A stretch of DNA of 56,674 nucleotides, filler included, from Catajapyx aquilonaris (taxonomy: Eukaryota), in the NCBI GenBank assembly GCA_000934665.2. It is 3 parts of 3 records of this genome, joined end to end, with 100 filler letters (N's around TTAATTAATTAA, not from the genome) between each part and the next. Parts side by side here need not be neighbours in the genome. Positions count along the whole stretch, not along the records: positions 37,833 to 56,674 come from JYFJ02006593.1; 2 more parts are not named here. One strand, given 5' to 3'. Within the stretch, counting starts at the first letter, position 1; each line of letters starts with the position of its first letter. The translations under genes and the position numbers were made by a program. The notes beneath the pieces are model-generated. The model saw nothing but the letters and a program-made list of their open reading frames with translations. It did no database searches and was not told where the DNA came from. Below are positions 2,141 through 56,674 of the stretch, in pieces.

Positions 2141-3056
2141 TAAGGTGGAAAGCGGCATTTCATATTGCCTGCCTATGTACAGAACATGTAGAAAACTAGA
2201 AATTGATGATGGCCAGAGGGCAATGATGACAGATGCGGTTACCTCATGACAGGCCTACGACCTGCAGGTGGTTGTATCAGATCAGATTAGAAGGAATCAC
2301 TTTTTATAAACTTGGGCCAACTCAACACTTTGTACCTCAGAAGTGGCTTGGCTGTGGTTTAAACCACATCATCATATCACCCATTCTTAAATGCAGTATA
2401 TCTCTACTGCCTTTGCCTGTATTAGGAATGAATTATGTACTTTTCAATCCAAAGGATCATCACTTCCAACTTTTGATTCATACACAATACACCATACCCT
2501 CAATACAATATCCTCAAAAAATTCCCATGATTGTAAGATAATATTTTATTTCCTCATATTGTTACAAAAGCTTTCTTGTCAATAACTTAAGAATAAGTAA
2601 TTGCATCATTTGTACTACTTCATCCAAATAACGATTTGGTGTACAATTACTTTAAAACTACTAACAATTCACAACTTTTAAAAATAAAAAATCTAGTGGT
2701 GTGTCAAGAAAGAAAAAAGGGAAACCCCTCCCATCCATGTTATGACCAGGAGAGGGAGTACTTTTATTTCAATGGCACCCCAAGGCAACTGGCTCAGTTC
2801 AGAGGAAAGGCACATGTGCATAATACTATTGGCACTGTCATGACGAAGGAGGGAGGAGCTAATGAGGTTCACACCCTCTTTGGTGTTTTTTTTCTGAAAC
2901 CAACTATACACGAAAACTGCCCAGCAAACAGCCAGGAAAAAGAAAGCAGTGCCAACCATTTAAAAAATCCCATTCCCAAATGCCTCACAATCAATTCATT
3001 TGAATCATCAACATAATTGGCTGGTACCATTTCCTCATGGCTACCTACACATTACC

Positions 3057-3259
3057 TACACTGTAAACCGCAAAACATTAAAAGAGCATCACTGGTGAGT
3101 CTCTTATGGAACATCAATTTATAATGCTCAGCTAATGCTCTTGTGATGCTTTTTAGCAATGAAAAAGCATTGTTGGAGCATTAAAAAAGCATTAAAAATT
3201 GATATTCCATGAGCGACTCACCAGTGATGCTCTTTTAATGTTTTGCGGTTTACAGTGTA
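3057..3259. mobile_element. TA-flanked MITE
   Basis: Perfect ~40-bp TIRs CACTGTAAACCGCAAAAC.../...GTTTTGCGGTTTACAGTG, TA on both sides. Confidence 0.9.
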
Positions 3260-3284
3260 GCAGATGGGGTCTTGGAATAATACA

Positions 3285-3332
3285 TTACATACTGATCACT
3301 GCCCGATTTATCTTGAAAATGGAAACCAGTTG
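3285..3332 (-). CDS. NSMCE4A: NSE4-like terminal exon (QLVSIFKINRAVISM*)
   Basis: Polypyrimidine + CAG acceptor, in phase with the previous exon; peptide fits the Nse4 end (IV..F.I..PVI type). Confidence 0.7.
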   Translation of the reverse strand, partial: QLVSIFKINRAVISM

Positions 3333-3689
3333 CTGAAAGAACAAGACATTGATTAATATTGCATGAAGAAGGTACGTGGGTTGTGTCGTAAGTCATTTGC
3401 ACGTATTTTTCCATTCAAAAACCGGTTAACACATACAGATATGACCTTTGCTGAGTTTTGAAGCTCTGGCGATTACCATTTGATCTGATATATAGATGTC
3501 GCCCACATCTGGGGGGTGGGGGGGNNNNNNNNNNNNNNNNNNNNNNNNNNNNNNNNNNNNNNNNNNNNNNNNNNNNNNNNNNNNNNNNNNNNNNNNNNNN
3601 NNNNNNNNNNNNNNNNNNNNNNNNNNNNNNNNNNNNNNNNNNNNNNNNNNNNTGTGTCATCCATATCTACAATCTGTTTTAAAAAACAT

Positions 3690-3960
3690 TGCCCTCAATG
3701 CGTCTGAGTCCCACGCGAAGGCAAAATGGTGGCACTGTTTCACCTCAAAGAGATGGTGAGGAACCACCAGTGAGGATGCCAACTTCCCTTTTCAGAGTCC
3801 TAAGTACAGTGCTCTGACTTGTCCCACACTCAAAAGCAAGCTCCAGTGTTGCCCATCTCTGGGTGTCCCGCATGCAGCGTCCAACAGCTCCAAGCACGTC
3901 AGGCTGGAGCCGTCTTAAGGCGATGGTGCAGTGAGGGGGTAACGATCCCTCTTTGTTTCC
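3690..3960 (-). pseudogene. Degenerate mariner transposase fragment
   Basis: HTH-like LAFECGTSQSTVLRTLKR followed, after a frameshift, by VPHHL (mariner WVPHEL motif). Confidence 0.5.
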
Positions 3961-4178
3961 CTGCCTCCCTTGCGATATGGGCGACTTCTATATGCCAGCT
4001 CAAATTGTAAGACCTGTGGCTTAAAAACTCAGCAAAGTTAATCTCTGAATGTGTTACCGTTTTTGAATAAAAAATATGTACAATGACTCATAAAACAACC
4101 CACGTACATAAGAAATCAGCAGTGATTAATGGTTCCAATGTCACCACATACTCAGTCTAGACTCTAGACACTACTCAC

Positions 4179-4535
4179 TTGGTGCCGCTTCATTGTGAGT
4201 GGCTTCACAATCTGCATCCTTCCTTTTGGAGCTGAATTTCCACCTTGTTCTGCCATCTTGGACTTTTTCACAATGCCAATATTGAGTTCACCTTCCTTCT
4301 CATAGTTAAGCCAGACCTTATCATCCCGCACAAGAAAACTGACGTGGTACATGTTTTCAATGGTCCGGGAGAAGGATTTGGGGTCCAGTACAAATGCAAA
4401 GTAGGGCATGAATTTCACATTCCTTTTGGACAGGGCTTCCTTCAAAATTTTGAAGATAGCTTGTGCCTTCTCCTCTGCAGATTTCTCTGGGTTTGAAACC
4501 TGCTCTCCTAATTTGAGTTGCCTCACTGGTTTTGC
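4179..4535 (-). CDS. NSMCE4A: NSE4/NSMCE4A/EID3-like kleisin, penultimate exon (Nse4 C-terminal domain)
   Basis: YFAFVLDPKSFSRTIENMYHVSFLVRD matches the Nse4_C P.SF..T.EN.F..SFL.RD motif; CAG acceptor, GTGAGT donor; 357 nt, phase 0. Confidence 0.85.
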
Positions 4536-5141
4536 CTGTTGGTCAGAAAGGTATAAATATATTAGGGGTTGCACATAAATTCTTGTGGCTCTTGTACTGG
4601 GCATTCCAAATGTCAGCCCAGATCAGTATTCATTTTTAGAAACCTTCTATACCACATGCATATTAGCCTGCTTTGCCTCAAGAGGATCAATATTTTGCAA
4701 ATACACCAAAGATAAATAAAAAAGGAAGTCTGGGCCTCTCAGAAGGAAAATCAGTTAGCCCCCCCCCCCCCCCNNNNNNNNNNNNNNNNNNNNNNNNNNN
4801 NNNNNNNNNNNNNNNNNNTTTTTTTGGGGGGGGGGGGGGGTTGAAGGTCACACGAGCTTAGGTGAAAGTGGGAGATTTGAATAGGTGTGTATTTGATAAA
4901 ATTGGTAGCACTTTTTCCAAAAAAATAATGAATTAGTAATTTCTAATGCTTTTTCAAACTGTCCTGTATATCGTCGCGGTCCGGACAAAATTACGTCGCG
5001 GTCCGGATCCGCCAGTTGAATAGCCCTGCACTCTCATTTAAGTAACCCATCCATGCTAAATAATATGAAATGTCACAGCCAAGACATTCCAACACAAATG
5101 GTAATATTACCCTGAGTAACAACGGCTCTCTGAATCTAAAC

Positions 5142-5397: not shown

Positions 5398-5694
5398 ATC
5401 TAAACAGATGCAAAAAAATATTTCACTTGGCAAATATGCTTCTGACAAACGTGTTATCTGTATTGGTCTTGAACCAATTTAGCTCAAATAAGGGTCTAAA
5501 TCACATTAGGTGCAGTCCATAGTTTCACACTTCAGCCATTTCCTAACCATGAGCAAACTCAAAAGAGAACGTCTTAGTGGCAGAAATGGGCTTTGGGAGG
5601 AGTATTATTACCAACACAGGCTTGGGGGAGGGGGTGGTTCCCAAGGGAGGGCACTGTTCTAGTTTCAAGTACTTTCAGACTGTACTTATAACCT

Positions 5695-5862
5695 GACCTT
5701 TTCTCCTAGTCCTAGGCAGAGAAGGAAGTGCAAGTCAGCCGGGACACATCAGGTGAAAAGCAGAAAAAGCCACAGCAACCAAGTAACTGTGACAGGGATG
5801 GGATTTGATCCCTGGACCTCCCGCTTGGCGAGCCAGTAGCATAGTCACTAAACCATCGTGCC
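5695..5862 (-). mobile_element. tRNA-derived SINE, family A
   Basis: A-box/B-box-like head; homologous to 19911-20062. Confidence 0.65.
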
Positions 5863-5937
5863 CCCCTCCATAAGTAAAAATGTAGGCTGATGTCCTTGAA
5901 CGGCAAAAACTAAATCTAGAGTAGGATCGAATTATTA

Positions 5938-6118
5938 AGGCCCATTCACACAGGCCGTCGACGGTTTTGGTTTTAGTTCTTGTTGACGCCGTGGACCAAT
6001 CAGAGCGGGCCCTCACGGTAACCATGACGCGTTGTTTACGTGAGGGCCCGCTCTGATTGGTCCGCGGCGTCGACGAGAACTAAAACCAAAACCGTCGACG
6101 GCCTGTGTGAATGGGCCT
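5938..6118. mobile_element. PIF/Harbinger-type palindromic MITE
   Basis: Near-perfect ~80-bp arms AGGCCCATTCACAC.../...GTGTGAATGGGCCT; TTA TSD. Confidence 0.9.
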
Positions 6119-8155
6119 TTAAAGACCTGCACTTTAACCCTAATAAGAAGGGTGGTTTTTCACGTTTTTACAAGGATCTGCAAAGAATTCGCTTGCTTTG
6201 TCATTTGGGGGACAAGAAATACACTAGTGAATAAGAACGTCTAGTGTCCAGGCTTGATCCTGAGGCCATCTATGTGACCCTCCTCTCATACCATATGGAG
6301 ATGTAAATTCTTAAATGAGTAACAAGGTGGCACAGGGGGAATGTTTCAATCAAATTTTTTGTCACTCTGCCTGCTTGACAAAAAGTATATGGGTATGTAG
6401 GCTTGACATGGCTGAACAAAGCAGTACATAAGCACATGGCATGAATTACGTCACAGGCCTGCCAGGCGAGCTGCAGTGATAAACACACACCCCCTTCCTT
6501 GTGCCACAGTGCCGCTAATTGGTATTTACGAACATTATTTATTTATTTTAAAATGATTGAATTATCTTTTGCACAAATTTTAGGGTGGAATCTCTTGAGG
6601 AGGTTTGGGGGCAACTATGTATGCCAAAAATTTGCCGGCCAAATTATACCCGAGTCCACTACATCCAAAGTGGTGTGTGAGTGTTATAGTCAGGACCCTG
6701 CCAGGAGGCCCATGGCGGGGGCCCATGGCGGGGGCACGCAGGGGGGCATGCAGTGAAATTCTTAGGAGGAATGTGTCCAGACTTTAGGGTCACCGTGCAT
6801 GTGTCCAGACTTCAATACTGATAATAAGCAATCAATTCACTCCCCCCAATACTGATCCGATTTTAAAGACGTATTCACGTCAAAAGCTGCGGCTTGTGTT
6901 CCTGACACAACCTAATGTTTTTTTCAGCGGCCACAAAAAGATGATTTCATTCAAGTTAATCTGGTTAATCCGGTTTATTTATGCAAGATTTTGCAGTCCA
7001 AAATTCGCGATATTTTTACGTGCGAGAAAATTTAAAAAGGCACACAGAAACCACGTTACATAGTGGGAAAACGCTATAGTTTCACCAGCAGAATTTTTTA
7101 AAGCCACCGTAGCAGCATATGATATGCCTGTCTTATTAGGGTTAAGACTAATTTTTGTTTTTACTCCATTCCCCCTCATAGGCTAATTTGCAGATATCCA
7201 TCATCACCCCAAGGGAAAGTGCTAGACTGTTTTTCTACTGCCTGGTTTTTCTCTGCCCTGTACAGTGCTGGGCATATATTCCATTGTACTGCTAGCAACA
7301 TTTCCAATGGGGCAGAAGTACACATTGAATTGATGGAGTGCGAACCGTGCGAGTAAGAAATGGTAGGCCTTAGGGAGGCGGAGTGGTGCTGCGGTAACGC
7401 ACGCGCCCACGGATGTTAAGGTCCGGGGTTCCCCCCTTCATCTTGTGCAGAGTTGGGCCATCTCTGGCTTTGTCTCGCGTGGAAATTTCTGCTAGACTAA
7501 TCCACCATAGGGAGTTCACAAAATGACCAATATGCAACATTGCACTTGCACTTTGCACATCCCCTCCTACCTACCCTAATCGTGGACCAACTAAATAATT
7601 GTAAATTATACACATGGTTCCAAATTATGGTGGTATTCCCATCCCCCTAAAAGGGCCTTTTGGCCCTAGCACAGGGTATTTAAAAAGAAAAAGAAGAAAA
7701 AAAGGTAGGCCTTGGCAGACGTTACTGGCTGGGAAGCCTTTTTCTCCATTGCCTCCAGCTAGTGACGTCACCCAAGGCAACATATTGTGCAAGTGGAAAC
7801 TGGCTAGAAGTGGTTAGAGCAAGTGATACTTGCTTGCACTTTGTGGCTTTTGCCAAAGTTTTGTGATTTCCTGTCAGTTTATTGTTGTTATTCGGTTTTT
7901 GCTCTTGTTCACGACCTTATATTTATACATTAGGCCTATAAAATTATTCTGGCTTTTTAATTTTCTGTACCATTATCTTTCATATAGTAAAATTTTTGTG
8001 CCTATTTCAGGGTTTTTTCGTGATTAAAAATCTGGACTCTAGTAATAGGCCACTGAATGAGGACTTGGAAATTTCAAGAATGTATCAAGACTTGCTTCCA
8101 AAAACCTCCAGTCATCCATAATTACGAAAATAGAAATTAAACTCAAGTAACTGAC

Positions 8156-8392
8156 CTGAACCACATTTGCAAAGGGCTCAATGTTAAATCCCATGACTGT
8201 TCTTGGAGGAGCTCGGATTTTGTGGAGATTATGTAACTTCACTCCCATGGCCCACATGGAAGCCCCCTGAGGCATCACTCTGGCATTAGGATGGAGAAGA
8301 AACCGAAGTTGATCTTTCAAGTACCAGAAGTAGAGGTGATGCCATGGTAGCAAGGACAATCCAAAATGTGGTTCTGCCACAACCAACTCAAC
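8156..8392 (-). CDS. PRMT7: PRMT7 exon 7 (last one found; no stop codon)
   Basis: EPHF..SLLPWHHLYFWY...LHKIRAP...GF; follows a 58-nt intron; ends phase 0 at GTCAGT. Confidence 0.92.
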
Positions 8393-8802: not shown

Positions 8803-8856
8803 CTAAATTGGAAAAATGTCTAGCATCTAAGAAGGCAGTGACAATCAGAAACTTAC

Positions 8857-9180
8857 ATTCCTGGTGGTGAGACAAGATCAAACCACCAAGAGAGCCAGTC
8901 ACGAGATGCCCACAGCTCAGCCTTTTCAGTAGCCTTCATCTGCAGCTCATGAGGCAAGAAATAAACAGCCTGAAGCCAGTGGTCCCGCCACTGAATCTCC
9001 TTCCCTTCTTCCTCCTCTTGTGCCCATTCAGGAGCACAACTGAGAACTATGTTGCCTTCAGTGTCCATATCCAGACACCACCACATGAAAACTGCATGCG
9101 CTTTACCAGTGTTGAGACACTCAAAGAGTGCAGACCTTCTTTCTAGTTCTGGAAGTTCCTCTTTGCTGCCCCAGTCAAAG
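8857..9180 (-). CDS. PRMT7: PRMT7 exon 5 (THW-loop equivalent)
   Basis: AVFMWW..MD...LSCAP.W...QWRDHWLQAVY; phase 2 at both ends; GTAAGT donor. Confidence 0.95.
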
Positions 9181-9268
9181 CTATTTAAAATAGTGTAATA
9201 AAAAATAAAATAAAACTGTGACTTCCTTATACAGGCAAGACAAATAGACAACACAGAATAATTCTCAC

Positions 9269-9507
9269 CTATAGATTGGCATCACAGGTGAGATGGCCAC
9301 AAACTGTTCTGGCTTCAGTTGACTCAACTGAACATTATGCGCTATTGATGTGTCCCCAGAGCAAGCAAGCATGTCATGGGGTGGAGAGATATCATCAAAA
9401 CCTTCAGGAAGTCTGATAGGAAACTGACGTTGCTGTTTATGGAACAAGTCACATTCCACTACTTGGGCATAGACGGTGGCTCGGGCAGGAACCACTATGG
9501 CATCATC
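9269..9507 (-). CDS. PRMT7: PRMT7 exon 4
   Basis: VVPARATVYAQVVEC...VQLSQL; 239 nt, ends phase 2 at GTGAGA. Confidence 0.93.
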
Positions 9508-16914: not shown

Positions 16915-17126
16915 TACAGGGTGGTCCAACATCAAGTGTCGTTTTATAACGGCGATTAATAGCAGTGATTTTGCGATGACGTAGCAGCGACGCGTAAAAT
17001 GTCCCACTTCGGCGCATCTTCGGCACCATCGAAGTGGGCAATTTTACGCGTCGCTGCTACGTCAATAGTAAAGCGCTTCTATTAATAGCCGTTATAAAAC
17101 GACACTTGATGTTGGACCACCCTGTA
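16915..17126. mobile_element. Tc1/mariner-type MITE
   Basis: TA-CAGGGTGGTCCAACATCAAGTGTCG.../...TGATGTTGGACCACCCTG-TA. Confidence 0.9.
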
Positions 17127-17247
17127 TAGAGGTTTTACTGCATAACAGGTCCTGCTCCATATTTGTTTTATTTAAAAATTTAAGTTGACGGATATCCTGG
17201 CAAACCAGAATCAATCACATAAAATGATCTCTAATAACCAGAAATAC

Positions 17248-17397
17248 CTCACAAGCAGTGACAGTGTCCGCACCTAACTGGACAGCCATCATGGAGAGCA
17301 ATCCAGTGCCAGTTCCAATATCTAAGACGTTAGCTTCCTTGTTCTTGGCATGCATGGCATTGATGGCCAGTCTGAGTCCAGCAAAATACTTTTCATT
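17248..17397 (-). CDS. PRMT7: PRMT7 exon 2 (SAM-binding motif I)
   Basis: NEKY...VLDIGTGTGLLSMMA...TACE; TTTTGCAG acceptor, GTATTT donor; 150 nt. Confidence 0.95.
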
Positions 17398-17683
17398 CTG
17401 CAAAATAAATGGAAAATATTAGCTTAAATTAGAGCCATCCAACATACATTAATATTTGACTTTATCCCAGTTCTTCCCTTGTGAAATTGGCAGTTAAGAT
17501 GGGCTCAAGTAAAATACTGCATTGGAAATTATTTCACCCAATATTTTGCTAATGTCAACACCACCAATGTGCAGTAAGGTCTACATTTGCTAGTCCAGTT
17601 TCACTTGACGAATGCAGTATGCTGTAGTCATCTACCGTCATCTACATAATGCAGGCAAGCAACTCTCAACCTTGTTGCACATT

Positions 17684-27790: not shown

Positions 27791-28548
27791 CTCCTTAGCT
27801 GTCTTTTTGGACACACACAATGCACACATGTGCAATGGGTTGCATGCAAGCCAGGATAACTCGCGACAATCTTTGTTTTGGCCATTGACACAAAAGAAAT
27901 CCTGTTGGATATCTTCTGGACATCTGTTGGATATCCTCTGGGTATCCGGGACGCCAATCACGGATATATCGATATGTAACCTAGGCTTTGATATTTCCAC
28001 CTAGATGGCAGTACTGACAGGTAGTGGCAGTTGAGAACGGCTTGTCCCTGCAACCGGTTTTATAAATTCTAGTCGCGTTCGGATAGAATCAGGTTCTGGA
28101 GAAGGGTCTTGCATTCCGGATGAAGCTAGCTTGGAACCACGGAGCCCCCGATAGTCTCCGATGGTCTCATAGGACCAGAGATGACCACTCCAATCTCATA
28201 TTGTGCAGAGAGGGAGGACTGGGAAATAACTGAAAGAGAAAAGGAGGTCAGTAGTGACCTATTGGCATCTGGAATCAGATCAAACACGGTTTAAAGCTGG
28301 GTTTCTGGGAAGGGTGAGAGAGTAGAGTGATTTAAATTCGCGTTGAATCATCACAAATAGCACTTAATTTTGTTAAATAATTTTGAATCATTTGACGTCA
28401 CTATCGAATCAGGTTGATTCACCTCAAATCACATCCGATGGTGTTAAATCACCTCAAATCAAATTCGTGTTAAATCATCCCACGTGTTAAAATCGCTGCA
28501 AATCATGTTAATTCGCGGTTGAATCATTTTAAATCATTTTGTTCCTAG

Positions 28549-28845
28549 GTGACTACGAGGCCAGGATAATAGAGCATGAGAAGCAGGAGGCCAAACTGGG
28601 GTCACCGGTCAGCTTCACCTGTATCGCCAGGCACAAGTCCATTTCGGACACCCTGTCCTGGTATCACGGATCAAGTAAGATCACTGTGGGATCCAGGAAG
28701 GGGATCAGCCTGGAGAAGCACAGTACGGCCAATCACACCACGACCAAGCTGGTCATCTGGGCCGTAGAACTGGCCGACGCTGGGAGCTACACGTGCCTGC
28801 CGCAGTACGGCGCTTCTGCCTCGGTCACACTTGTGGTCAGGGAAG
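28549..28845 (+). CDS. Dpr-family protein, Ig2 exon
   Basis: GSPVSFTC...WYH...L.I......DAGSYTC.P.....ASV.L.V; phase 1 at both ends. Confidence 0.9.
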
Positions 28846-29227
28846 GTGAGCAGAATCAGATGCTTGAGCGCGGCTCACAACGGTCTTAAGCATGACTCAC
28901 GGTTGCCAATTTGGTGTCGTTTTGGGTTTAACTTATTAGTGATATTTATTACAGCTGTAAGATTGTGCTACTATCCACTATCTAGGCCTACTACTATTAA
29001 TATCTATTAAATCTATTAAATTTTAATTAATCGTCGTATCAATGTAAACAACGTTGATTGAGGTGGTTCACTTGGCATGTATGTCCGTTGTGCTCTCAGC
29101 AACCATTTTGTATCCAGACTTGTTTTTGGAAGAACTTACTGTAATTTTTTCACTGACGTAAGATTATCTTTCAGATTATATACTATCTATGAGTTACATT
29201 ATCTATTTTGTTCTCTATTCCCCACAG

Positions 29228-38559: not shown

Positions 38560-38875
38560 CATTGGGTTCTTGGGAAGGACACGTGAAGGTGGTAACCATC
38601 CTTGCAAGAAACGGAGCCGCCATTGACGATGAAGGATTCAATGACATGACGAATCTACACTGCGCCGTCAAATTCGTCCATGTGAAAGTTTGCTTGACAT
38701 TGGTGCAGATGTGAGGGCCGGATGTTACGAGGGGTTCCAGGCCATACATTTGGCAGCCAAGGTTGGGGACTTGGAGGTGGTTAAACTGCTGCTGGAGAGG
38801 GATGCATTCCTGGAGGCCATAATATATGAATCTCGAGGCTGCTTAGCATGCCCACGGGAGTGTGGTGAAGCGTGA
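38560..38875 (+). pseudogene. Degenerate ankyrin-repeat fragment
   Basis: GHVKVVTILARNGAAID, LHCAVKFVHVKV and AIHLAAKVGDLEVVKLLLERDA across frameshifts. Confidence 0.8.
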
Positions 38876-46800: not shown

Positions 46801-47139
46801 ACTTCTAGTCCCGGTTCAGTCTTACAGCACACACATTTGGCTTCCTGTATACTTAACCCTGCCACATTCCATGCTGCTGCTCTAAATATTACATTAGTTA
46901 TACTCCAGGTTGGGGTGTGTGTGAAGAATTACAGACACCGATTGAACGGCCAGCGATCAGTTTAAGGATATCTTCGCCCATCTAAGAAATGTTATCAAAC
47001 GAAATGCAGTATTACTTTTACATTGCGAGGAAAAAGTCACGTGAAATCACTTCATGAAAAGTTCTTCTCACTTGATTTTACGGAATAATAATTATATTAA
47101 AAAATCCTATGAACTCTTCTTACGCATTCAAATTCCCTA

Positions 47140-47960
47140 AGTCCCTGCAGGCAGGGTACTCATGCCCCCCCCTCATGTGGCACCAATGGCAAGTGTCAAT
47201 CTGATATGGAGACTTTCCAGGAATGATCTAGACTTCTTTAGTCCCCACTTGAGGGAAGAGGTCATTCAGTAGTCTCTTAAGGCCGCGACACCACTTGCTG
47301 ACACCCGCACCAGAAAAATGTAGCCCATCCTTGGCCATAATATCATAATCTCTCATAATAATAGTCCCTCATAATTAAAATGATTCTTTTAAAACTGCCC
47401 ATTCATTTTGCCCTAACCTCGTTGCAAAAAATTAGTGAACTCTGAAAAATTATTCAAAAGTCTCGCTGAACTTTGGAGAAAGGTAATCCAAGCAATTAGT
47501 ATCATATAGGCCTACTGTACCTCAACTTTGTACAGATGAGCACCAGCAATCCGCTGCGTCATCTTCTTGATCTTCCTGTTCCACCACATGCGATGCCTGT
47601 CAAAAGCTGGTTGGTCCACTCGAGGCGCGACTTCTGCCACGATTATTCGGCAATTGGGCAGGTCTCCTCTCAAATTGCCTCAGAATCCCCTCCAATTCCT
47701 CCTGGCGTTTGGCCAGTTCAGCCCCGGCCGTTGTTGGGTCACTTGTGTGGGCGTGGGCGATTTCGTTGGTGCCCACGGCTACCACCACGAAGTCCAGCTT
47801 GTTCATATTCATCCTGACCACCTCCATGGTAGGCTGCAGGTCAGCTACACGCCCCCCCTGGCAGGCTGAATGTGATGATATGATGCTGGGGAGGCAGCAC
47901 GCGGTTCCCCGGGCTGTATTTTATCATGGAGTCTCCTATCAAAATTCCCTTCAGGATCAT
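47140..47960 (-). pseudogene. SGNH hydrolase + CCHC knuckle gene, copy A (frameshifts and a stop)
   Basis: Exon 47521-47960 (GDS, GTNE) and exon ~47140-47339 (KDGLHFS...CHWCHMRG). Confidence 0.75.
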
Positions 47961-48339
47961 CTGCAAAAACAAGAACTTATACAATTAAAGTACGAATTTT
48001 TAGGCAGAAAACACCCTGAAATAGGCACATAAATTTTACCCTATTTTACCTTTGCGGGTGTATGGATGGAGGATAACATTACAGAAAAAGGCAGACATAA
48101 TTTACAGGCCTTAAGTATATTATAAGGCGACAAACCAGAGCAAAAACCGTATATGGTAACAATGAAATACCGACAGAAAATCACAAAACAGTGTGTATGA
48201 AGAACTGGTCGTGCAGGCGGAGTGAATAACTAACTCTGCATGTCATATATACTATATCAGTCTAGTGACTTTGAGCTAAGTAGCTTAAGAATGCTGTGTT
48301 CAAGCATCCGGTCATTAGGTGTCCCTGCAATTCCTAACC

Positions 48340-48715
48340 CAGAAAATCCCGAAAAATATTTGAAAATACAGTATACTGACTTTCCCTGAACTTGGATCCC
48401 TGATGTTTCCAGAACCTGTATGTCTCTGATTAATCTGCGGAATAAGACTCCCTGCCCAGCTACTTTGCAGTCCTTTTCTCGAACCAATATCACAAGTTGA
48501 ATAACTTGCAAAGAAAACCGCAAGTGATCTGGAAGATTACCCAAAGTAATGTATACACTGCTAAGAGCTTGTGCTTCGTTTTGGCTGCACCTATGGGATT
48601 TACTGTTTCGAAGGCATCCTGATACAATATGATCCGAAGAGCATCGAAATTGAAGCCTTTTTCGTAAAAACAACATATGTCAAACAACTTTTCAGGAGAG
48701 AGAGAAAACATTCTC
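48340..48715 (-). mobile_element. CMC/EnSpm-type transposase fragment
   Basis: LYQDAFETVNPIGAAKTKHKL.AVY.TLGNLP..LR..L..IQL...LIRDIQ.LE..GI, with one frameshift. Confidence 0.72.
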
Positions 48716-49213
48716 TGGTCTGAACAAATGCAAATTCACACAATCAAATAATAGTGTCTTATGGACACACTCATGTTAATCTTCATGAAATTTCAATATC
48801 TGAGAGCGGTAGATTTGATGAAAAAAAAAATCCAGACTAAAATTGACATATGCTTTCTTACTTAAAAGTTGAAATAAAAATCCATAATGTTCCACTTTCC
48901 ATTATATTTCATTATGAAATACATAATTTTTACCCTCAGAGAATGCACTGATTCATTCCTACAGATCCTCGCAGCCACTGCTGTTATCTTCCTCATCAAT
49001 GTCAACAGTCTTGCCTCTGTCGTCAGTTCTGAAGTCTTCAAAGAAATTCTTGTTCTCAGATTCTTTGTTCTCAGATTCAGATCACTTCAGCATGTGCCAT
49101 CTTGGCAGTAGAGATAGAGGTTTATCTATGTGAGCTAGATGACAAGACATGCCACTACAGCTCATAATCTAGTTATATTTTATGGATTGTACACGTGTAT
49201 AGGCCTACTGTAC

Positions 49214-49648
49214 CTCAACTTTGTAAATATGAGCACCAGCAATCCGCTGCGTCATCTTCTTGATCTTCCTGTTCCACCACATGCGATGCCTGTCAAGAGC
49301 TGGTTGGTCCTCTCGAGGCGCGACTTCTGCCACGATTACTCTGCAATTGGGCAGGCCCCCTCTGAATTGTCTTAGAAACTCTTCCAACTCCTCCTGTCGT
49401 TTGGCCAGTTCAGCCCCGGCCGTGGTTAGGTCACTTGTGTGGGCGTGGGCGATATCATTGGTGCCCACGGCTCCCACCATGAAGTCCAGCTGATACCGAT
49501 TCCTCCTGAGCACCTCCATGGTTGGCTGAAGGTCTGATACACGCCCCCCTGGTAGGCTGAACGTTGTCACATCGTGCTGGGGCAGCACGCGGTTCCCCGG
49601 GCAGTATTTAATCATTGAATCTCCTGACAAAACTCCCTTCAGGATCAT
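49214..49648 (-). CDS. SGNH hydrolase gene, copy B, open first coding exon (second exon absent)
   Basis: Open 145 codons with GDSM, PGG and VGTND; TTTTGCAG acceptor, GTACAG donor. Confidence 0.7.
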
Positions 49649-49830
49649 CTGCAAAAACAAGAACTTATAATAAGCCAGAAGGTGTATTATAATGACCAGA
49701 GATAACCCCTTGAAGTGTGACGTTCACACAATAGGAAAACCTGGTGACACAACTCCACACCCAACCAACCAACCAACCACAACCCTTTTACAGAGATAGA
49801 CTCACCCCCGAGTGTGACGAAATTGGTATG

Positions 49831-50032
49831 TTTATTTAGTTTAGTTTAGTTTATTTTATTTCTTTTCCCCTGGTAGGCTTCCGCCTTTACATAAGGGGGA
49901 GGTCCCCGCAATGTTTACATTAAATACATTACACTTACATATGATACATAATATTATGCTCCCTGTAGTAGTATGAAGTGTTCATTAAACAAAAAGGTCG
50001 CATATACTAAACAATAGGAAAAAAAGGGGGGN
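49831..50032 (-). mobile_element. 5'-truncated non-LTR retroelement insertion
   Basis: 14-bp direct repeat ACGAAATTGGTATG on both sides; (TTTAG)n tail. Confidence 0.7.
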
Positions 50033-51519
50033 ACGAAATTGGTATGTGACCCATCTTGAGAGGACTGGGATTGTTCAAGATTGGAATGTTATTCCCCCTG
50101 AGGCGAAAAGGACATGGGTTAACTCCTTTCTATACTTTATCCCTTGCCTGCAAATTCTCCTTCAGCCAGAATTGTGCTTGAATTGCTTCTGCTTCACTGA
50201 TCTCCTCTGCGAAGCAATCGTTATCATAATTATTTTAAACGCATAAAAGTAATTGCTATGGATTGCTAAATGCAGGGTGGGTCAATAGATCAGACTGCTG
50301 GGAAGGGAGGGAGCTGAACCGGGCAGGCTCTTACCATGCGGGCTGGGAGACACGTGGTCTTTCATGCTTTTCAGGGTCACATCTTAAAATCTCTGGCTAA
50401 CCCCACCCATCAACTGTACCTGACAAATACTTCCGTTATTTAGCCACATTTTGACGCATGAATCATTTGGATATGTTCACCATAGCGCGAGTCACAAGCC
50501 ACTAAAAAGGTATCACATCGATTGACCCACTCTGTATAATACCATACCTGTAGGATCAATTATAGCTGGGAGTCTGGGACACACAGCCTCTGTTTTGGTA
50601 CTCCGTCAGTGTCAACACTTTTGCCACTTTCAGGTGCTGTCCTTTTCAACCCTCGTTTCCTCCAATTGCGGAACCTTTCTTCGAGCATTCCCTTTGCAGG
50701 TTGGCCATTTTGGCTGCGAATGTAGTACAGCGCCTATATGCAAAGTAATATAGGCCTACATCACAATAAATCGAGAAAAACTAAAACTAGCCCAACATTT
50801 CCCCATATTTCCCATGGGGTGGGCTCAAGATACCCGCGCCTATGGAGATTCACATGTTAGCGTTTGGCTTAATAACTTAATTCAGACTGAACGAAATTAC
50901 GTGCAATTTTTAAACAATACGGCACAGCATCCCTTGTGATGGTGGCTTTTTGTAGACCGACTCATGATCTAGGGTATGATTTCATGATGAAAATTAATTA
51001 ACGGAGAAAGGTTTCACTCACAGTTTCACTCACAGTGTTTTAGAAATGGAAAAAAAACTCTTGTCTAAACTGAACTAAATGACTATCTATTTTTTTTCCA
51101 TTCATCACAGCATCCTGTATGTTGACCGATTCCATATCCAGTCAAACATCTGAATGTGAATCACACAAGAACCCATGCCCGCCTCTGAAAATGACAAAAA
51201 TAAGGTTTGAAATATGATGTAAATTTTAGGGTCACTTTTTCAACAAGCATTTTTATTACACCTGTTGAAAAAATTAATACAATAGAAACCCCACCGGTGT
51301 CCTCAGGCACCTCGAGGTACCATTTGCTTGCGGTGGGGGGTTTCACAATAATACAAAGGCCAATCGCTGATGTCACAACCAGAGGATCCAGGTGAAATTT
51401 TATGGCATCTTCTGACGTTAGTATTACAGAACTGTAGTGCAATGCTACACCTGCCGTTAGACAGTCTATTCGCTAGAGCAAAATTAAACTCATATGTGCT
51501 ATGCAACCACAAGATGTCA

Positions 51520-51816
51520 CGCAACTGCTCCAGTCCTCGGGGCCACATTTCAGCTGAGATGGTAGACCCTGAGAAGGAGATAGCGAGATCGGAGGATTCT
51601 TTAAAGGCGATCACATGCTGAGAGATCTGGGGGCGGTACTTGACATTCTTTGTGCCCATGATGTTGAAAAGAGTGCTGGCAGACTCATAACGCAAAAGTC
51701 TACATAGAAGCGTAAGCATAAGCATAACGATATTTTTGATTGAAAAATCATGGCTTTCATCTACAATGAGTCATTCGAAGCTTACAAAGAGCGAATTGGA
51801 TTTGTTTGCCTTACCA
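51520..51816 (+). mobile_element. Maverick remnant: end of basic core gene and start of major capsid gene
   Basis: IGGFFKG...KRKHKHNDIFD*, then ATG at 51750 giving MAFIYNESFEA(+1 nt)TKSELDLFALP. Confidence 0.75.
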
Positions 51817-52164
51817 GGGATTAGAAAAGGTTGGGATACTTCCGGTCACGTTCCGATAACGTCGAGACATCTGGAGGGAGGAAGGCAGAAACAGCGATCG
51901 TATCTCATCGCGTGGGGCGATACGATAACTGCAGGAATACGGTAGCTCATTCCATGCTATTGGCAGCTTATGGTTCAAAATCCACCTCAACAGTTACACT
52001 TTCACTGCAGGATCGGCACAAATTCATGCAGGTTGACACGATCTTGGCATAATTCAGCCCAGGCTGTAAGAAAGGGCTGTAGAGGAAAAACCCTCTCCCT
52101 CCCACAGTAACAGATTACATGTTACTTCATCATGACTGAATTTATCTACATTGGATACGCCACA

Positions 52165-52260
52165 CTGTACTATGGGCGCCAAAAGAATTGACCGGAGTTG
52201 ATGTGTATATAGCGCCATATACCCATCAACTCCGGTCAATTCTTTTGGCGCCCATAGTAC
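52165..52260. mobile_element. Small palindromic MITE
   Basis: ~38-bp perfect arms TGTACTATGGGCGCCAAAAGAATTGACCGGAGTTGATG. Confidence 0.85.
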
Positions 52261-52289
52261 AAGGAAACCACTGCCCTAAACACACACAA

Positions 52290-52930
52290 AAAAACCTAAA
52301 AACTCACATTCACAACTTTGCCACCTTTCTGTTCTTGGGTTTGGTGTCCTGCATATTTCGGTTGCGAAACCGCACCCACCACAGCACACGTATCCTGCAA
52401 AACAGGTATACAAAATCCTCCTTCCTTTCCAGTGAGCAGAAATCAAAGGAGCAGTTGCCTTGTACACAGGTGGCCAATTTAGCCACAAGATTAAGCTCAC
52501 GAGACATTGTGTCAAAAACTTAACCTTCATTTTCTTAAATGGACCCATATCAGTATGTTTTCTTTGTTATTTTTGGCAGAAGCCTGACACCATCCTGAGA
52601 CAATTCACTGTTGGCAACTGCCTTCAATGTACTTCCCCTCCACAAGGTCACCATCAATTTTGATGTTGTGGGATTTCAAATTGTTCCGTACACTCTTTAC
52701 CAAGTGAGGACGGTCGTACATAGAGAAAACTTTGTCTTCCTGGAAACGGCATACGGCAGTGCAAGAGAAATGCCAAAGGCATCAAAAGCACTTCTATTTG
52801 ATCCCTGATCTGCTACCACCATCTTCAGAATCAAGCTTGTTTTCTTAACGTCACGGATGCACGTATTTAAGACTTGGAACAACTCCTGGAACAACTGAGA
52901 AGAAGTTATGACATACAGCTCCTCGATCAT
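52290..52930 (-). mobile_element. Internally deleted P-element/THAP9-like transposase
   Basis: VVADQGSN, YDRPHLVKSVRNNL, PK...H...FKKMKVK..Q and C-terminal RIRV......N......NRKVAKL. Confidence 0.78.
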
Positions 52931-53129
52931 GGCTCAACTCTCTTTAATTTCAGCTCTCTCCTCATACACTTCGTGGCCGCAGCCGTCATTCTGTATTGTT
53001 TTTATGAATATTTTGCCCTGCACTGTCTTACACATATTGGAAGGATGCCTCATCGATTGGCCAATGCCTCTGCTTCAGTATCATGTTCCTCCAGTCCATG
53101 CTCTGGAGAAACAGTGAGGTTTTTGTAGT

Positions 53130-53625
53130 ACTCACATTCCTTGAAGTTTGATCCAGTTTGATCCGAGATGGTTCGCGTGGAGCGCTGCAACATCATGCAT
53201 TTTAACTTCGCTCGCATTGTTTGTAACAGTTTTGGCAAGTGGGTCCCTTCCAAGCCACGACTTTTCACGCTTCGTGATAGAAACTCTAGTTGTTCCATGT
53301 TGAAATCGATAGTTTGGCTCGGCTCTCACAAGGGCACAATTTTTCCCTCCTCTCTGGTTGAAAAGTCGCTTGGTTGCTGATATCTTAAATGGGAGTGGTT
53401 TTTTGCACTGACCTGCACTGAATGTTTTCCAGTCATACACCTCCCAGCCCCTGTCATCTTGGCCTCCAAGGCGATGAAGAGTGGACGTGTCCGAAATGAT
53501 GCTATAATAGTTTTCTGGCACAAGGATGGATTCGAACCTCCGAACAGCTTTTTCGATCACCCCGAAACTCTGTCGGGAGGCATGAATGAATGTCCTGGGA
53601 CTGGGAACAAGGACATTGGTACCCC
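53130..53625 (-). mobile_element. Sola-like transposase C-terminal fragment
   Basis: FPVPGHSFMPPDRV/FGVIEK...I..PE.Y...WEVYDWK; superfamily assignment tentative. Confidence 0.55.
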
Positions 53626-53777
53626 TTCAAATAAATAACTTAAATATATCTCGATGACTAAAATTAATGCCTACAATTGGATGTGGGCCTCATTTCTCCC
53701 CCCAAAAATCGATGACTGTTACTTGACACCCATACCCAATCTGAAATGGCATCACCCCAATACATTAAAGAGTAGGT

Positions 53778-55128
53778 TTACCCTGGTATCCCTAAGTCCC
53801 TGCAGGCAGGGTACTCATGCCCCCTCATATGGCACCAATGGCAAGTGCCAATGCCAAATGGGGACTTCCCAGGAATTATGTGCCCTTCTTGAATCCCCGC
53901 TTCAGGGAACAGGCCATTCAGAAGTGTCCTAAGGAACCGGCACCACTTGCTGAGACCCTTAATGGAAAAATGTAGGCCATCCCTGGCCAGCAAGTCTCGC
54001 CGGCCACAGAAACGAGCCTGTTGAATGATGTGTGAAAGGGCATTATTAAAACAACTTTATTATAGGCTACTGTTATGAACTTTGGAGCAATGGTGTCGGT
54101 TATGCCGAAGGTAATCCAAGCAATTAGTATCATGTGGTAGCATTTTAAATAAATAGATGGGCAAATCCGGTTTTCAGAGGAGATTTTGATGCCGGCGGAA
54201 GGGATGGAGTGCCCTCACCTGACCGCCAAGTCTGGTGAAAATCACCGCAGACCCGGAGATTGTTATGATGCACTCGTGAACTGAGGAAAATCAGTCTGAC
54301 TTGAACCTTCCATGTCACAAGTCGTGTTGGAAGTGCCCATTACAGTCATTCTTGTTCGTGCCCTTATGAAGTTTATATATCCTCCTGAGACCTGATGTCC
54401 AATATATTGGGCATCCGGATTTAATTATTATTTACCGCCTTGCTATGGAGCAGATCGGAATAGCACTATGCTTGAGTGGTATGCTCACGATTTGGTGCTA
54501 GAGCGAAAAAAAAAAAAAAAACTCAAGTCTATCTGGCAAGCAAACTGAGCAGCTTCCATGACAAAATGGCCGTTCAATTCCACTCTTAAACTACAAAAAG
54601 TTAGTGTAAAAATGTGGAATTTATCTTTGTCTTAATGCACCACGTGACAGTAATTGCTTGGATTACCTTCGGCACCACCCATTCGGTTGCTGTAAATATC
54701 AGCGCGACTTTTTAAATTTATTTTTTAGGGTGCACTAATTTTTGCAACAAAGTTAGAGCGAGGCAACTAGTTGGTGTTTGAACTGGGCATGAATTCACTG
54801 TGAATCTTCGAAATCCAAGCAGATTCAGATCACTTCAGCATGTCACATCTTGGCAGTAGAGATAGAGGATCATCTAAGTGAGCTAGATGACATGACATGC
54901 CACTACGGCTCGTAATGTAGTTATATTTTATGGATTGTACACGTGTATAGGTCTACTGTACCTCAACTTTGTCAAGATGAGCACCAGCAATCCGCTGCGT
55001 CATCTTCTTGATCTTCCTGTTCCACCACATGCGATGCCTGTCAAGAGCTGGTTGGTCCTCTCGAGGCGCGACTTCTGCCACGATTACTCTGCAATTGGGC
55101 AGGTCCTCTCTGAATTGTCTCACAAACT
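53778..55128 (-). pseudogene. SGNH + CCHC gene, copy C (exon 1 cut by hAT; exon 2 at 53778-54017 open)
   Basis: Exon 54962-55128 is near-identical to copy B. Exon 2 reads ARFCGRRDLLARDGLHFS...CHWCHMRGHEYPAC...*. Confidence 0.75.
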
Positions 55129-55129
55129 C

Positions 55130-56674
55130 TCTGGGCCGGACTGGCTAGTGGTTGGCCCCACCGGCTGTTAAATCGTGTTGGCCCCCAATTGCTCAATCAT
55201 TTACCGTCCCCAAAACCTTCACATTATTGTACCAAAATTGGTACGGTAAGTACGAGTATTATAAAATCACGGAAAATTATTGTTGCATTACAAAAAATAA
55301 CTGCACAAATTATACGAAGGTTACATTTTTGGCTTGTGAGGATTGACTTTGTTTTTTGCCAGTAGGTTAAAATTAACTTGACCTGCATTCATGTATCATA
55401 ACTCTTAACTGAATTTGGGAATGAGAACTACTTACAAGTTACAGCTTCAGCATTATAGACCATTCGCATGAACTAGCGGCAATATCATCAATTACCTTAT
55501 TATAATCGAAATGAAAATCTCTTTCAACATAGAACAAAACGAAATCCTCTAGCAAATCTTGACCCAATGAAGAACGTAAGCGATTTTTTATGATTTTCAG
55601 AACTGAAAAAACTCTCTCACAGGAAACCTGTGTACAAGATAACGTTAGCACAAATTTGTAAGCCACATATAGTGATGTATAAAATGATCCGTGACCATTT
55701 AACTCGTACAGTAATCCCAAAACACAAGGTAGACAACGTTGGCATTTCACCTTTTCTTCAAAATTAAATGATTCCGTGAAGATATCGATATCATCCATTG
55801 CAAATCCCGAGGCTGTTCTTCAGTGTCGCTCCGATCATCAGTGAATTCGAAGTTTTTGTCAGCATCAGATGTTTTCTTAACTGCACTGTAATCGTCATAA
55901 TGCGTCGCAAATTGTATCAATTCCCTACACAGCTCAGCACGATTTGTTCCAGTAAGTTGGGCCAAGTTTTTAAGCATGTTTTCGTCACGATGGGCACTAT
56001 GAAGGTTCTGGAAGTTTCTTGGATCTAATTGTGCAATATCGCTCATAAGTTCTCCATTCAAAATAAAACACTCCTTCAATTGGTGTACTGCTGTATCAAT
56101 TATCACATAATAAACATCTCTTTCGAATCTCTTGGATGGTGATGTGTAAATTTGTCTCACTTCATCAGCAGCTAATTCTCCTGCTCTTCGCTTTGCAATC
56201 GGGATGCGCTTTGATGGTAAGCTAGGTTCTATTTCGATGTTGACTTCATTTTCAGCTAAACGTTCGTTTAAATGAGCCACAAAATCAGTGGCGATGTTGT
56301 GGAGTATTTCAAAGTTGTCCCTTTTCCCCCGGATTTGGCCATGCAAGGTGTTTACCATTCGGCTTGCTGCCAGGTAACTGAGACCACTTGTTTGAAGATA
56401 CTTGGAGGCAGGAGTAGAAACATTGAATAAATCACGGTAAATGAAGGCAACCATGATATTCTCAAACTTGCACCAGTTGTTGAGCAATGTCTTTGCTGTA
56501 AATGTCACGTCCGATGAAAAATCACTACTATTTGCAATTGTGAAGAGGCAGAGTAGTAGAGTATAGAACTTGTTACAGTCTGCAAACGGAACATTCAAGT
56601 CATCGAAGACACTGTGCAATGCTCTGTCCTTGCTCCACCAATGAGTCGAATCTTCTTCTATCTTCTTCTTCTAA
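55130..56674 (-). mobile_element. hAT (ZMYM1-like) transposon, 3' part, one frameshift
   Basis: PASKYLQ...F.RDVYY.IID, then LTLSCTQVSCERVFS.LKIIKNRLRSSLGQ..L; terminus CTGGGCCGGACTGG at ~55131. Confidence 0.9.

Follow-up and report, generated by a model that had tools for sequence, protein, structure and literature searches.

The locus raises two questions: what kind of gene joins an SGNH esterase to a zinc knuckle across two exons, and how such a gene came to be present more than once within a short distance. To the first, the answer we favour is that the region probably holds three decayed same-strand copies of a two-coding-exon gene from a rare animal family, whose product of ~224-230 amino acids consists of an SGNH esterase of the retrotransposon-ORF1p type, a linker of ~40 residues and one Gag-type knuckle. 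The evidence for this reading, and the alternatives to it, are given below.

Three decayed copies

Three related loci (A, B and C), all on the minus strand, were recovered by tblastn and a family HMM in six frames within the window, that is, the whole 56.7-kb stretch of DNA analysed; the remaining matches (E >0.3 in tblastn, >2 with the HMM) gave no fourth locus there. The three related copies of an earlier note on this DNA were thus found again. In blastn alignments the identity is 89% between A and B over 477 nt, 95% between B and C over 311 nt, and 82% between A and C over 204 nt. The features are as follows.

47134..47981, minus strand: copy A, whole unit by blastn limits (21 nt of acceptor region, exon 1, intron of ~150 nt, exon 2); pseudogene
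47521..47960, minus strand: copy A exon 1; donor GT at 47520-47519
47135..47368, minus strand: copy A exon 2 remnant; in-frame TAG; knuckle at 47147-47191, with x5 spacing
48260..48735, minus strand: transposase-like frameshifted ORF pieces ~300 bp upstream of A; Transposase_21/Plavaka lead (embedding score 0.92)
49072..49669, minus strand: copy B; exon 1 intact, with the acceptor region before it and 142 nt of intron after it, up to the end of homology at 49072
49214..49648, minus strand: copy B exon 1; starts at ATG, 145 codons long, with SGNH blocks I-III (GDS, PGG, GTND); donor GT at 49213-49212
53789..55130, minus strand: copy C, 5'-truncated unit by blastn limits; intron and intact exon 2 kept
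54962..55130, minus strand: copy C exon 1 fragment, approximately the last 56 codons; donor GT at 54961-54960
54018..54961, minus strand: copy C intron, GT..AG, enlarged by repeat insertions
53778..54017, minus strand: copy C exon 2; 79 codons (54017..53781) and TAA (53780-53778); block V (DGLH), linker and CCHC knuckle (53802-53843)

No single copy is complete, as had been claimed. Relative to B, exon 1 of A carries two 1-nt insertions (at ~47671 and in the G-run 47852-47858) and one 3-nt insertion; at both 1-nt sites the extra base is lacking in each of 3 DNA runs (3/3 contigs per run). Copy A has also lost its acceptor, and its exon 2 contains, besides the TAG, three extra G in the knuckle that change the spacing to x5. 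Copy B ends inside the intron. Copy C lacks its 5' part, and the insertions in its intron include a repeat of very high copy number (~54146-54416) and a duplication in inverted orientation (54103-54144 / 54634-54674). The copies in the window would be dead relics, and intact ones may exist elsewhere in the genome. Contig depth over exon 1 of A is 2-3 times the local single-copy depth, from which several more copies are present in the genome.

The dN/dS ratios among the copies differ between pairs. Ka/Ks is 0.30 for exon 1 of B versus A (145 codons, Ks 0.27), which points to past purifying selection on the protein between the copy lineages, and 0.43 for exon 2 of C versus A (75 codons). Copies B and C show 6 differences only, with a Ka/Ks of 1.36, so the recent history is neutral.

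The exon junction

Exon 1 of B and exon 2 of C join in phase 0 across a GT..AG intron, reading KVE|ARF, exactly where the earlier note had placed the junction, and exon 2 of C is preceded by ..caacag. The further claim that splice sites are conserved between copies stands for the donor, gag|gtacagtag being kept in 3/3 copies, and falls for the acceptor, which is seen in copy C only: B ends 142 nt into the intron, and in A the sequence at this place is unalignable and contains no in-frame AG. The resulting 224-aa product is pieced together from two copies, with exon 1 taken from B and exon 2 from C. Against a profile made only from the homologues P0005-P0008 (see below), this product gives a single-domain alignment that runs through the junction (residues 4-181, 69.5 bits, E 1.6e-23). 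The ORFs of two other homologues, P0001 and P0002, end just beyond the end of exon 1, reading 'VS', as expected of a GTxAGy donor; the intron position would be common to these proteins and the window copies. Judged from these sequence features, exon 1 is predicted to be spliced to exon 2.

The esterase domain and the knuckle

The spliced product contains all the SGNH catalytic blocks, with GDS, PGG and GTND in B exon 1 and DGLH in C exon 2, and the block columns are conserved in the homologues too. Exon 1 of B matches Pfam Lipase_GDSL_2 with E 2.2e-7, its 32.0 bits lying slightly below the cut-off of 32.9. When the family profile was compared with the PDB, the best match was 4c1b, the ZfL2-1 ORF1p esterase (E 1.9e-17), with PAF-AH as the next-best solved group (~1e-10). 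An AlphaFold model of the homologue P0005, made with the family alignment, reached a pLDDT of 80.8 and a pTM of 0.82, and its Foldseek matches are SGNH hydrolases (TM ~0.6, E ~1e-6). Motifs, profile and model agree with the SGNH identity proposed before, and 4c1b with the proposed link to LINE ORF1 esterases.

The product ends in C-x2-C-x3-GH-x4-C, the knuckle being CHWCHMRGHEYPAC. Among 113,344 six-frame residues the C-x2-C-x4-H-x4-C pattern has two occurrences, of which the knuckle of copy C is one. Residues C213, C216, G220, H221 and C226 are invariant in P0005-P0008, so that the Gag-type CCHC knuckle read earlier in copy C is found again at the C-terminus of these proteins. Among 43 relatives examined, C-x2-C-x3-GH-x4-C is present in 5, all of them family members, the spliced window product included. 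Pfam zf-CCHC (PF00098), a very short model whose weak matches are dropped by the HMMER filters, was unreported at E <=10 for exon 2, P0005, P0006 and P0008; in the PDB profile search a retroviral NC protein matched weakly at the knuckle (E 0.37).

The family

Exon 1 was used for a HMMER scan of 1.84 billion representatives at a threshold of E <=0.001. Five proteins were returned, four of which are true relatives: P0001 (7.4e-16), P0002 (6.4e-13), P0003 (5.5e-8) and P0005 (2.2e-5). Three more, P0006, P0007 and P0008, came from a profile search. Proteins P0005-P0008, from public assemblies, are intact and stand-alone, 228-231 aa long, and all end in C-x2-C-x3-GH-x4-C. Exon 2 matches P0005 by BLASTP (E 1e-5) over both DGLH and the knuckle. 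In the tree the family forms one clade (98/92), apart from the 14 LINE-ORF1-like esterases sampled; within this clade P0001 and P0002 are the partners of the window product (100/98), and the deep nodes of the tree are unresolved. On these comparisons the esterase-knuckle architecture is real.

The product would act like an esterase-type ORF1p that lacks the coiled coil used for multimerisation. Binding of single-stranded nucleic acid would fall to the knuckle. The SGNH domain would take an acyl ester as ligand or substrate, a lipid or membrane ligand of the kind suggested for ZfL2-1 ORF1p.

Multiplication of the gene and alternative explanations

Since the intron is retained, the gene would multiply as DNA and not by retroposition; it would either be copied within segmental duplications of a transposon-rich region or travel with a DNA transposon as its passenger. 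Homology between the copies begins 21 nt 5' of the ATG and ends at the stop codon, and directly outside this unit the flanks are unrelated (local-alignment z -0.2 and -1.0). Simple segmental duplication fits poorly, because at a Ks of 0.27 co-duplicated flanks should still be alignable; an autonomous mobile unit fits poorly as well, because no TIR or TSD was found around the copies within the window.

A polypyrimidine-AG acceptor lies immediately 5' of the ATG in A and B, and the gene could on this account serve a DNA transposon, for instance one of CMC/EnSpm type, as its second, accessory gene, spliced from the element transcript onto that acceptor; the copies would then be wrecked elements. 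En/Spm produces two proteins from one transcript by splicing. The exact start of homology 21 nt upstream, the kept intron, the additional genomic copies indicated by depth, the discrete unit ends with unrelated flanks, and a Ka/Ks of 0.30, compatible with an element lineage under selection, all accord with such an origin, as does the tnp2/Plavaka-like fragment upstream of A on the same strand. However, a cargo gene would be expected to share its backbone on both sides, and no shared sequence is present in the flanks of the three copies; TIRs and TSDs were likewise not found. The transposase-like fragment adjoins copy A only and is separated from it by an unrelated repeat end (47996-48189, also at 7858-8031), and its CMC/tnp2-like identity is a lead from embedding, the pieces having no Pfam match. 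We regard the accessory-gene origin as unlikely. It is improbable that the copies are fragments of an esterase-bearing retroelement, whether Penelope-like, Ngaro (whose SGNH ORF lies downstream of that for the recombinase) or a CR1/L2/RTEX LINE ORF1. Esterase ORFs are indeed on record, in passages of the respective reports, for CR1, L2, RTEX and Penelope elements (PMC3905857), for rotifer LTR and Athena elements (PMC5408684), and for Ngaro elements as an extra SGNH ORF after the YR, of role not known (PMC9210276); Penelope-like elements carry introns that are conserved (PMC8557442). Of the esterase carriers, the earlier note had named CR1 and L2 only. Among solved structures a LINE ORF1p esterase comes closest, and the same-strand, partly truncated copies are reminiscent of partial tandems. 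Nevertheless, RT, endonuclease, APE, GIY-YIG, integrase and recombinase families are represented in none of the 115 ORFs of at least 62 aa between 30 and 56.7 kb, in line with the earlier statement that no RT or endonuclease lies nearby. The unit limits 5' of the ATG and at the stop codon, a 3' boundary with no poly(A) or other terminal repeat, and the separation of the family clade from the sampled LINE-ORF1-like esterases speak against this origin too, as do the missing coiled-coil and PHD parts of the family and a knuckle found in none of those relatives. The locus is accordingly no ordinary LINE ORF1 followed by ORF2, as had been argued: RT and endonuclease are missing from these ORFs, an intron is present and the homologues stand alone.

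A still more improbable explanation takes the intron for an ancient insertion within an intronless ORF, or the exon join for coincidence, so that the 224-aa protein was never made from this lineage. Its support comes from the GTACAG donor, weak at positions +4 to +6, from an acceptor present in a single copy, and from the later insertions clearly gained by the introns of B and C. Against it, removal of the GT..AG segment leaves an SGNH domain exactly collinear with an independent profile, without gaps and with a spacing ahead of DGLH that is normal by comparison with LINE esterases. The join is in phase 0, the exon-1 frame hits a stop 2 codons past the donor in 3/3 copies, and P0001 and P0002 seem to break at the same point. 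Returning to the two-exon esterase-knuckle gene, a narrower reading, held tentatively and somewhat more doubted than believed, is that it represents an undescribed animal family in which an ORF1p-type esterase, a Gag-type knuckle and an acquired spliceosomal intron are combined, either as a domesticated host gene that descends from transposon ORF1p or as a new ORF1p-like accessory protein of DNA transposons.

Comparison with known systems

The family and ZfL2-1 ORF1p (4c1b) are both SGNH esterases in which the S, G, N, D and H residues are intact; among the fold matches of the P0005 model ZfL2-1 ORF1p ranks highest by sequence identity (22-24%). Their ligand pockets are probably alike, and both are thought to work with a nucleic-acid-binding part. 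Unlike LINE ORF1p, the family carries neither a coiled coil nor a PHD or zinc-finger/leucine-zipper part at the N-terminus, the protein starting 3-6 residues before the first strand, whereas the long relatives do carry such parts. The C-terminal CCHC knuckle, in turn, is present in 0/14 of the LINE-like relatives sampled. The window gene further differs in its predicted splicing, in the absence of an ORF2 downstream and in its separate clade.

With Jockey-type ORF1p and retroviral nucleocapsid the family shares the canonical C-x2-C-x3-GH-x4-C spacing, placed here at the C-terminal end of a small protein of transposon-like character. It differs in having only one knuckle and in lacking an RRM. 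The likeness to Ngaro lies in a stand-alone SGNH ORF carried by a mobile element; as a passage of PMC9210276 describes it, the Ngaro ORF comes after RT/RH and after the tyrosine-recombinase ORF, with which it overlaps, within split direct repeats. Compared with that description, the window copies are without RT, recombinase, shared flank or split direct repeats. The SGNH fold is also common to the OSK domain of Oskar and the PAF-AH Ib catalytic subunits, neither of which has a knuckle. OSK has lost the catalytic residues (in a passage of PMC3905857), whereas the esterase-knuckle family keeps them.

Implications

SGNH esterases recur in unrelated retroelements, namely those listed above, and their role there is a matter of conjecture, with membrane targeting and RNP assembly among the ideas. 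The stand-alone form of 225-230 aa couples the esterase to a putative nucleic-acid-binding knuckle in one short polypeptide. This protein, conserved across divergent organisms and apparently under past purifying selection, is an easy target for expression and assay. As the window copies would be dead, their value is that of a pointer to the family. If the family is indeed undescribed, it would offer a minimal, coiled-coil-free system for testing the function of transposon esterases. A host gene would be a new instance of ORF1p domestication, and a DNA-transposon cargo would show that esterase genes are shared by DNA elements as well as by retroelements. As a separate observation, locus L002 has a classical LINE layout, in contrast to copies A, B and C.

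Layout of the three copies

Three related units lie on the minus strand of the window between 47.1 and 55.1 kb, and their parts are arranged as follows:

47134-47981, minus strand: copy A, with a polypyrimidine-AG acceptor (21 nt), exon 1, an intron of ~150 nt and exon 2
47960 (ATG) to 47521 (end), minus strand: copy A exon 1
49072-49669, minus strand: copy B, with the same acceptor as A, an intact exon 1 and then GT
49648..49214, minus strand: copy B exon 1, 145 codons, intact
53789-55130, minus strand: copy C, starting in the middle of exon 1
54017..53781, minus strand: copy C exon 2, 79 intact codons plus TAA, preceded by ..caacag

Copy A is dead. Compared with copy B it contains two 1-nt insertions (at ~47671 and in the G-run 47852-47858) and one 3-nt insertion, its exon 2 contains a TAG and has a knuckle with three extra G, and alignment to the other copies is lost at its intron acceptor region. 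The likeness of copy B to the other copies ends 142 nt inside the intron, and copy C keeps its donor GT at 54961-54960, followed by an intron of 944 nt that is swollen by repeat insertions. The copies in the window are relics. Exon 1 of B and exon 2 of C join in phase 0 into a product that carries the SGNH catalytic blocks GDS, PGG, GTND and DGLH and terminates in C-x2-C-x3-GH-x4-C. The description in the earlier note of three related copies with SGNH blocks and a zinc knuckle was borne out, blocks and knuckle being present in the B/C join, and the sequence of both exons agrees with the phase-0 junction proposed there. The claim that splice sites are conserved between copies holds for the donor, kept in all three, and fails for the acceptor, which is visible in C alone.

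Neither tblastn nor the family HMM, run over all six frames, revealed further copies in the window; a candidate at ~8.3 kb (weak tblastn match, E 5) did not survive the family HMM or an inspection of the frames. The knuckle pattern C-x2-C-x4-H-x4-C occurs twice in the 113,344 six-frame residues of the window. The second occurrence (16984-17025, minus strand), which lies in a short reading frame away from any SGNH signal, is probably due to chance.

Relatives and the proposed spliced protein

When exon 1 was compared with 1.84 billion representative proteins in a full HMMER scan, only five matches were obtained at E <=0.001, four of which are true relatives; the match to P0004, a 1796-aa protein aligned in seven short stretches, was judged spurious. 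Three further full-length family members came from a profile search. The full-length knuckle proteins P0005, P0006, P0007 and P0008, from public assemblies, are 228-231 aa long, start a few residues ahead of the first SGNH strand, keep every catalytic block and end in the same knuckle as the window product, its Cys, Gly and His columns being invariant in all four. By itself, exon 2 aligns with the last third of P0005, DGLH and knuckle included, with E 1e-5. A profile built from P0005-P0008 only, and therefore independent of the window, aligned the spliced product as one continuous domain spanning the junction (69.5 bits, E 1.6e-23), and the spacing from the last strand to DGLH in this product is that of LINE esterases.

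The closest relatives are P0001 (38% identity) and P0002 (34%), whose ORFs end just beyond the equivalent of the exon 1 end, where Val-Ser is read. Since Val-Ser is the read-through expected of a GTxAGy donor, the intron position would be common to P0001, P0002 and the window gene.

A word-indexed search for which exon 1 was the only query assessed 27 candidates, and not one reached E <=0.001; phmmer of exon 1 against PDB returned nothing but two chance-level ABCC3 matches (E 0.55 and above). The 15 pattern matches in viral contigs included no relatives. Metagenome contigs yielded two distant loci, neither belonging to the knuckle family, one being a classical CR1-like LINE (PHD-esterase ORF1 followed by APE-RT ORF2) and the other an esterase ORF. 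In the protein atlas P0005 fell among GDSL-type clusters only, with all scores <0.9.

Fold, phylogeny and comparison with transposon esterases

P0005 was modelled with AlphaFold from the family alignment; the model has good confidence in the SGNH core (pLDDT 80.8, pTM 0.82) and matches SGNH hydrolases in PDB (TM ~0.6, E ~1e-6). The best PDB match of the family profile was 4c1b, a structure of the esterase domain from the ORF1 protein of the zebrafish LINE ZfL2-1 (E 1.9e-17), with a PAF-AH-like protein from a bacterium (4e-12) and the mammalian PAF-AH Ib (~1e-10) ranking next. At the knuckle there was a weak match to a nucleocapsid protein of a retrovirus (E 0.37).

Among the proteins searched, relatives of greater length have the typical make-up of LINE ORF1 proteins, in which a coiled coil or PHD precedes the esterase. 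A maximum-likelihood tree computed for 34 esterase domains placed the seven rows of the knuckle family in one clade (98/92), within which the window product grouped with P0001 and P0002 (100/98). The 14 LINE-like rows fell outside this clade, with deep branches poorly supported. Of 43 relatives scanned for the knuckle pattern, five carry it, and each of these belongs to the knuckle family. Hence the domain is probably of the transposon-esterase kind, within an architecture that is the family's own. In comparison with the LINE esterase-type ORF1p, the knuckle family lacks the N-terminal multimerisation part and has a C-terminal knuckle and an intron.

Esterases of transposons are well known from CR1/L2 (PMC4120745), from CR1, RTEX and Penelope (PMC3905857), from rotifer LTR and Athena elements (PMC5408684) and from Ngaro (PMC9210276). 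ORF1 proteins of the esterase type and of the knuckle type are treated as separate classes (PMC3905857, PMC4120745). No title or abstract on a fusion of an SGNH domain with a CCHC knuckle was found in the literature searched, a scope that excludes most subscription papers and Repbase reports, and this absence is no proof that the fusion is unpublished. The esterase-knuckle family is rare and has no name; the relic copies lead to it, and it would offer a handy minimal system for the study of transposon esterases.

Copy history and selection

Homology between A and B starts exactly 21 nt upstream of the ATG and that between A and C stops at the stop codon; outside these limits the flanks align no better than shuffled sequence does (z -0.2 and -1.0). 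The intron is still alignable in part between copies. Exon 1 gave Ks 0.27 and Ka/Ks 0.30 (145 codons), and exon 2 Ka/Ks 0.43 (75 codons). On these values, with synonymous divergence modest, the A and B/C lineages split while the protein was under selection. The comparison of dN/dS among copies proposed beforehand detects selection between these lineages. B and C, with only six differences over 56 codons, appear to stem from a partial duplication that is both recent and neutral. That A and B are old paralogues whose flanks merely diverged was ruled out, because shuffle-like flanks do not fit a Ks of only 0.27.

Contigs assembled from DNA of this organism and aligned at 80% likeness contain further paralogous copies, and the depth over A exon 1 is 2-3x that of local single-copy DNA. 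At both sites of the 1-nt insertions in A, the extra base is absent from all three contigs in each of three runs, so that copies with an open exon 1 probably exist elsewhere. An intron-removing joint was found in none of 15 of the 17 joints among the DNA contigs.

Possible function and origin

An esterase fold with intact catalytic residues, the kept knuckle, a splice that leaves the domain collinear, selection in the past and the lack of retroelement machinery nearby together point to a protein that would be ORF1p-like. Its knuckle is predicted to bind single-stranded nucleic acid, and the SGNH domain would act on an acyl ester, either binding or cleaving it, by analogy with the proposal for ZfL2-1 ORF1p, an active esterase with lipid-dependent behaviour (PMC3905857). 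Features in the neighbourhood of the copies are the following:

48260-48735, minus strand: frameshifted ORF pieces that share the strand of copy A and lie ~300 bp upstream of it
47996-48189 and 7858-8031, opposite strands: two copies of a repeat end, 70% identity
55442-56670, minus strand: hAT-type transposase remnant (Dimer_Tnp_hAT, E 1.4e-5), with an open frame of 307 aa that is cut by the end of the window

Retention of the intron in every copy suggests that the gene multiplies as DNA. It may be a host gene, perhaps a domesticated ORF1p, whose family expands by local duplication in a region rich in transposons, as the position of the copies on the same strand within 8 kb would suggest; the discrete ends and unrelated flanks, however, argue against simple segmental duplication. 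Alternatively, a DNA transposon may carry it as an accessory gene whose expression would depend on splicing to the acceptor ahead of the ATG. That acceptor, the discrete ends of the unit, the multiple copies and a tnp2-like neighbour favour such a gene, whereas the lack of any common backbone, TIR or TSD among the copies argues against it. The neighbour in question, the pieces at 48260-48735, resembles tnp2 (CACTA/CMC) and Plavaka transposases in an embedding search only (score 0.92), which makes it a lead, and gave no Pfam match. Between these pieces and copy A lies the repeat end 47996-48189, part of an unrelated repeat; it stops 14 nt before the A acceptor region, and contig depth over it is ~350.

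An origin of the window copies from a retroelement, be it Penelope-like, Ngaro or LINE ORF1, is less likely. Penelope-like elements keep introns (PMC8557442), and the SGNH ORF of Ngaro comes after a recombinase (PMC9210276). In agreement with the earlier statement that reverse transcriptase and endonuclease are absent nearby, Pfam matched no RT, endonuclease, integrase or recombinase in the 115 ORFs of at least 62 aa at 30-56.7 kb. The only transposon domain matched in those ORFs was the hAT dimerisation region (55442-55819), within the remnant directly upstream of the truncated copy C.

Other features of the window

The intron of copy C includes a very high-copy repeat (54146-54416; summed contig depth ~5500-8200), and at 54376-54377, within it, breaks occur in many contigs. 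Close to copy C on its downstream side lie open reading frames 58-164 aa long (52605-53626, minus strand) that gave no Pfam match; one motif in them may resemble P-element/THAP9-like transposases. At 52166-52261 there is a near-perfect palindrome with 48-nt arms, 96% complementary and without spacer, whose depth is ~3000-4800 versus ~20 for single-copy DNA. It is probably a high-copy foldback/MITE repeat, and the sole Rfam match, a sub-threshold one to the miRNA family MIR7996, falls on it (43.8 bits versus a gathering score of 119).

Exons of host genes were also recognised:

4164-4622, minus strand: Nse4 C-terminal domain exon
8853-9281, minus strand: arginine methyltransferase oligomerisation subdomain exon
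17215-17418, minus strand: methyltransferase-like GTG-motif exon, read by eye
28533-28889, plus strand: immunoglobulin domain exon
38645-38872, plus strand: ankyrin repeat exon

The window is therefore genomic DNA of an animal, in which genes lie to the left and transposon debris to the right.
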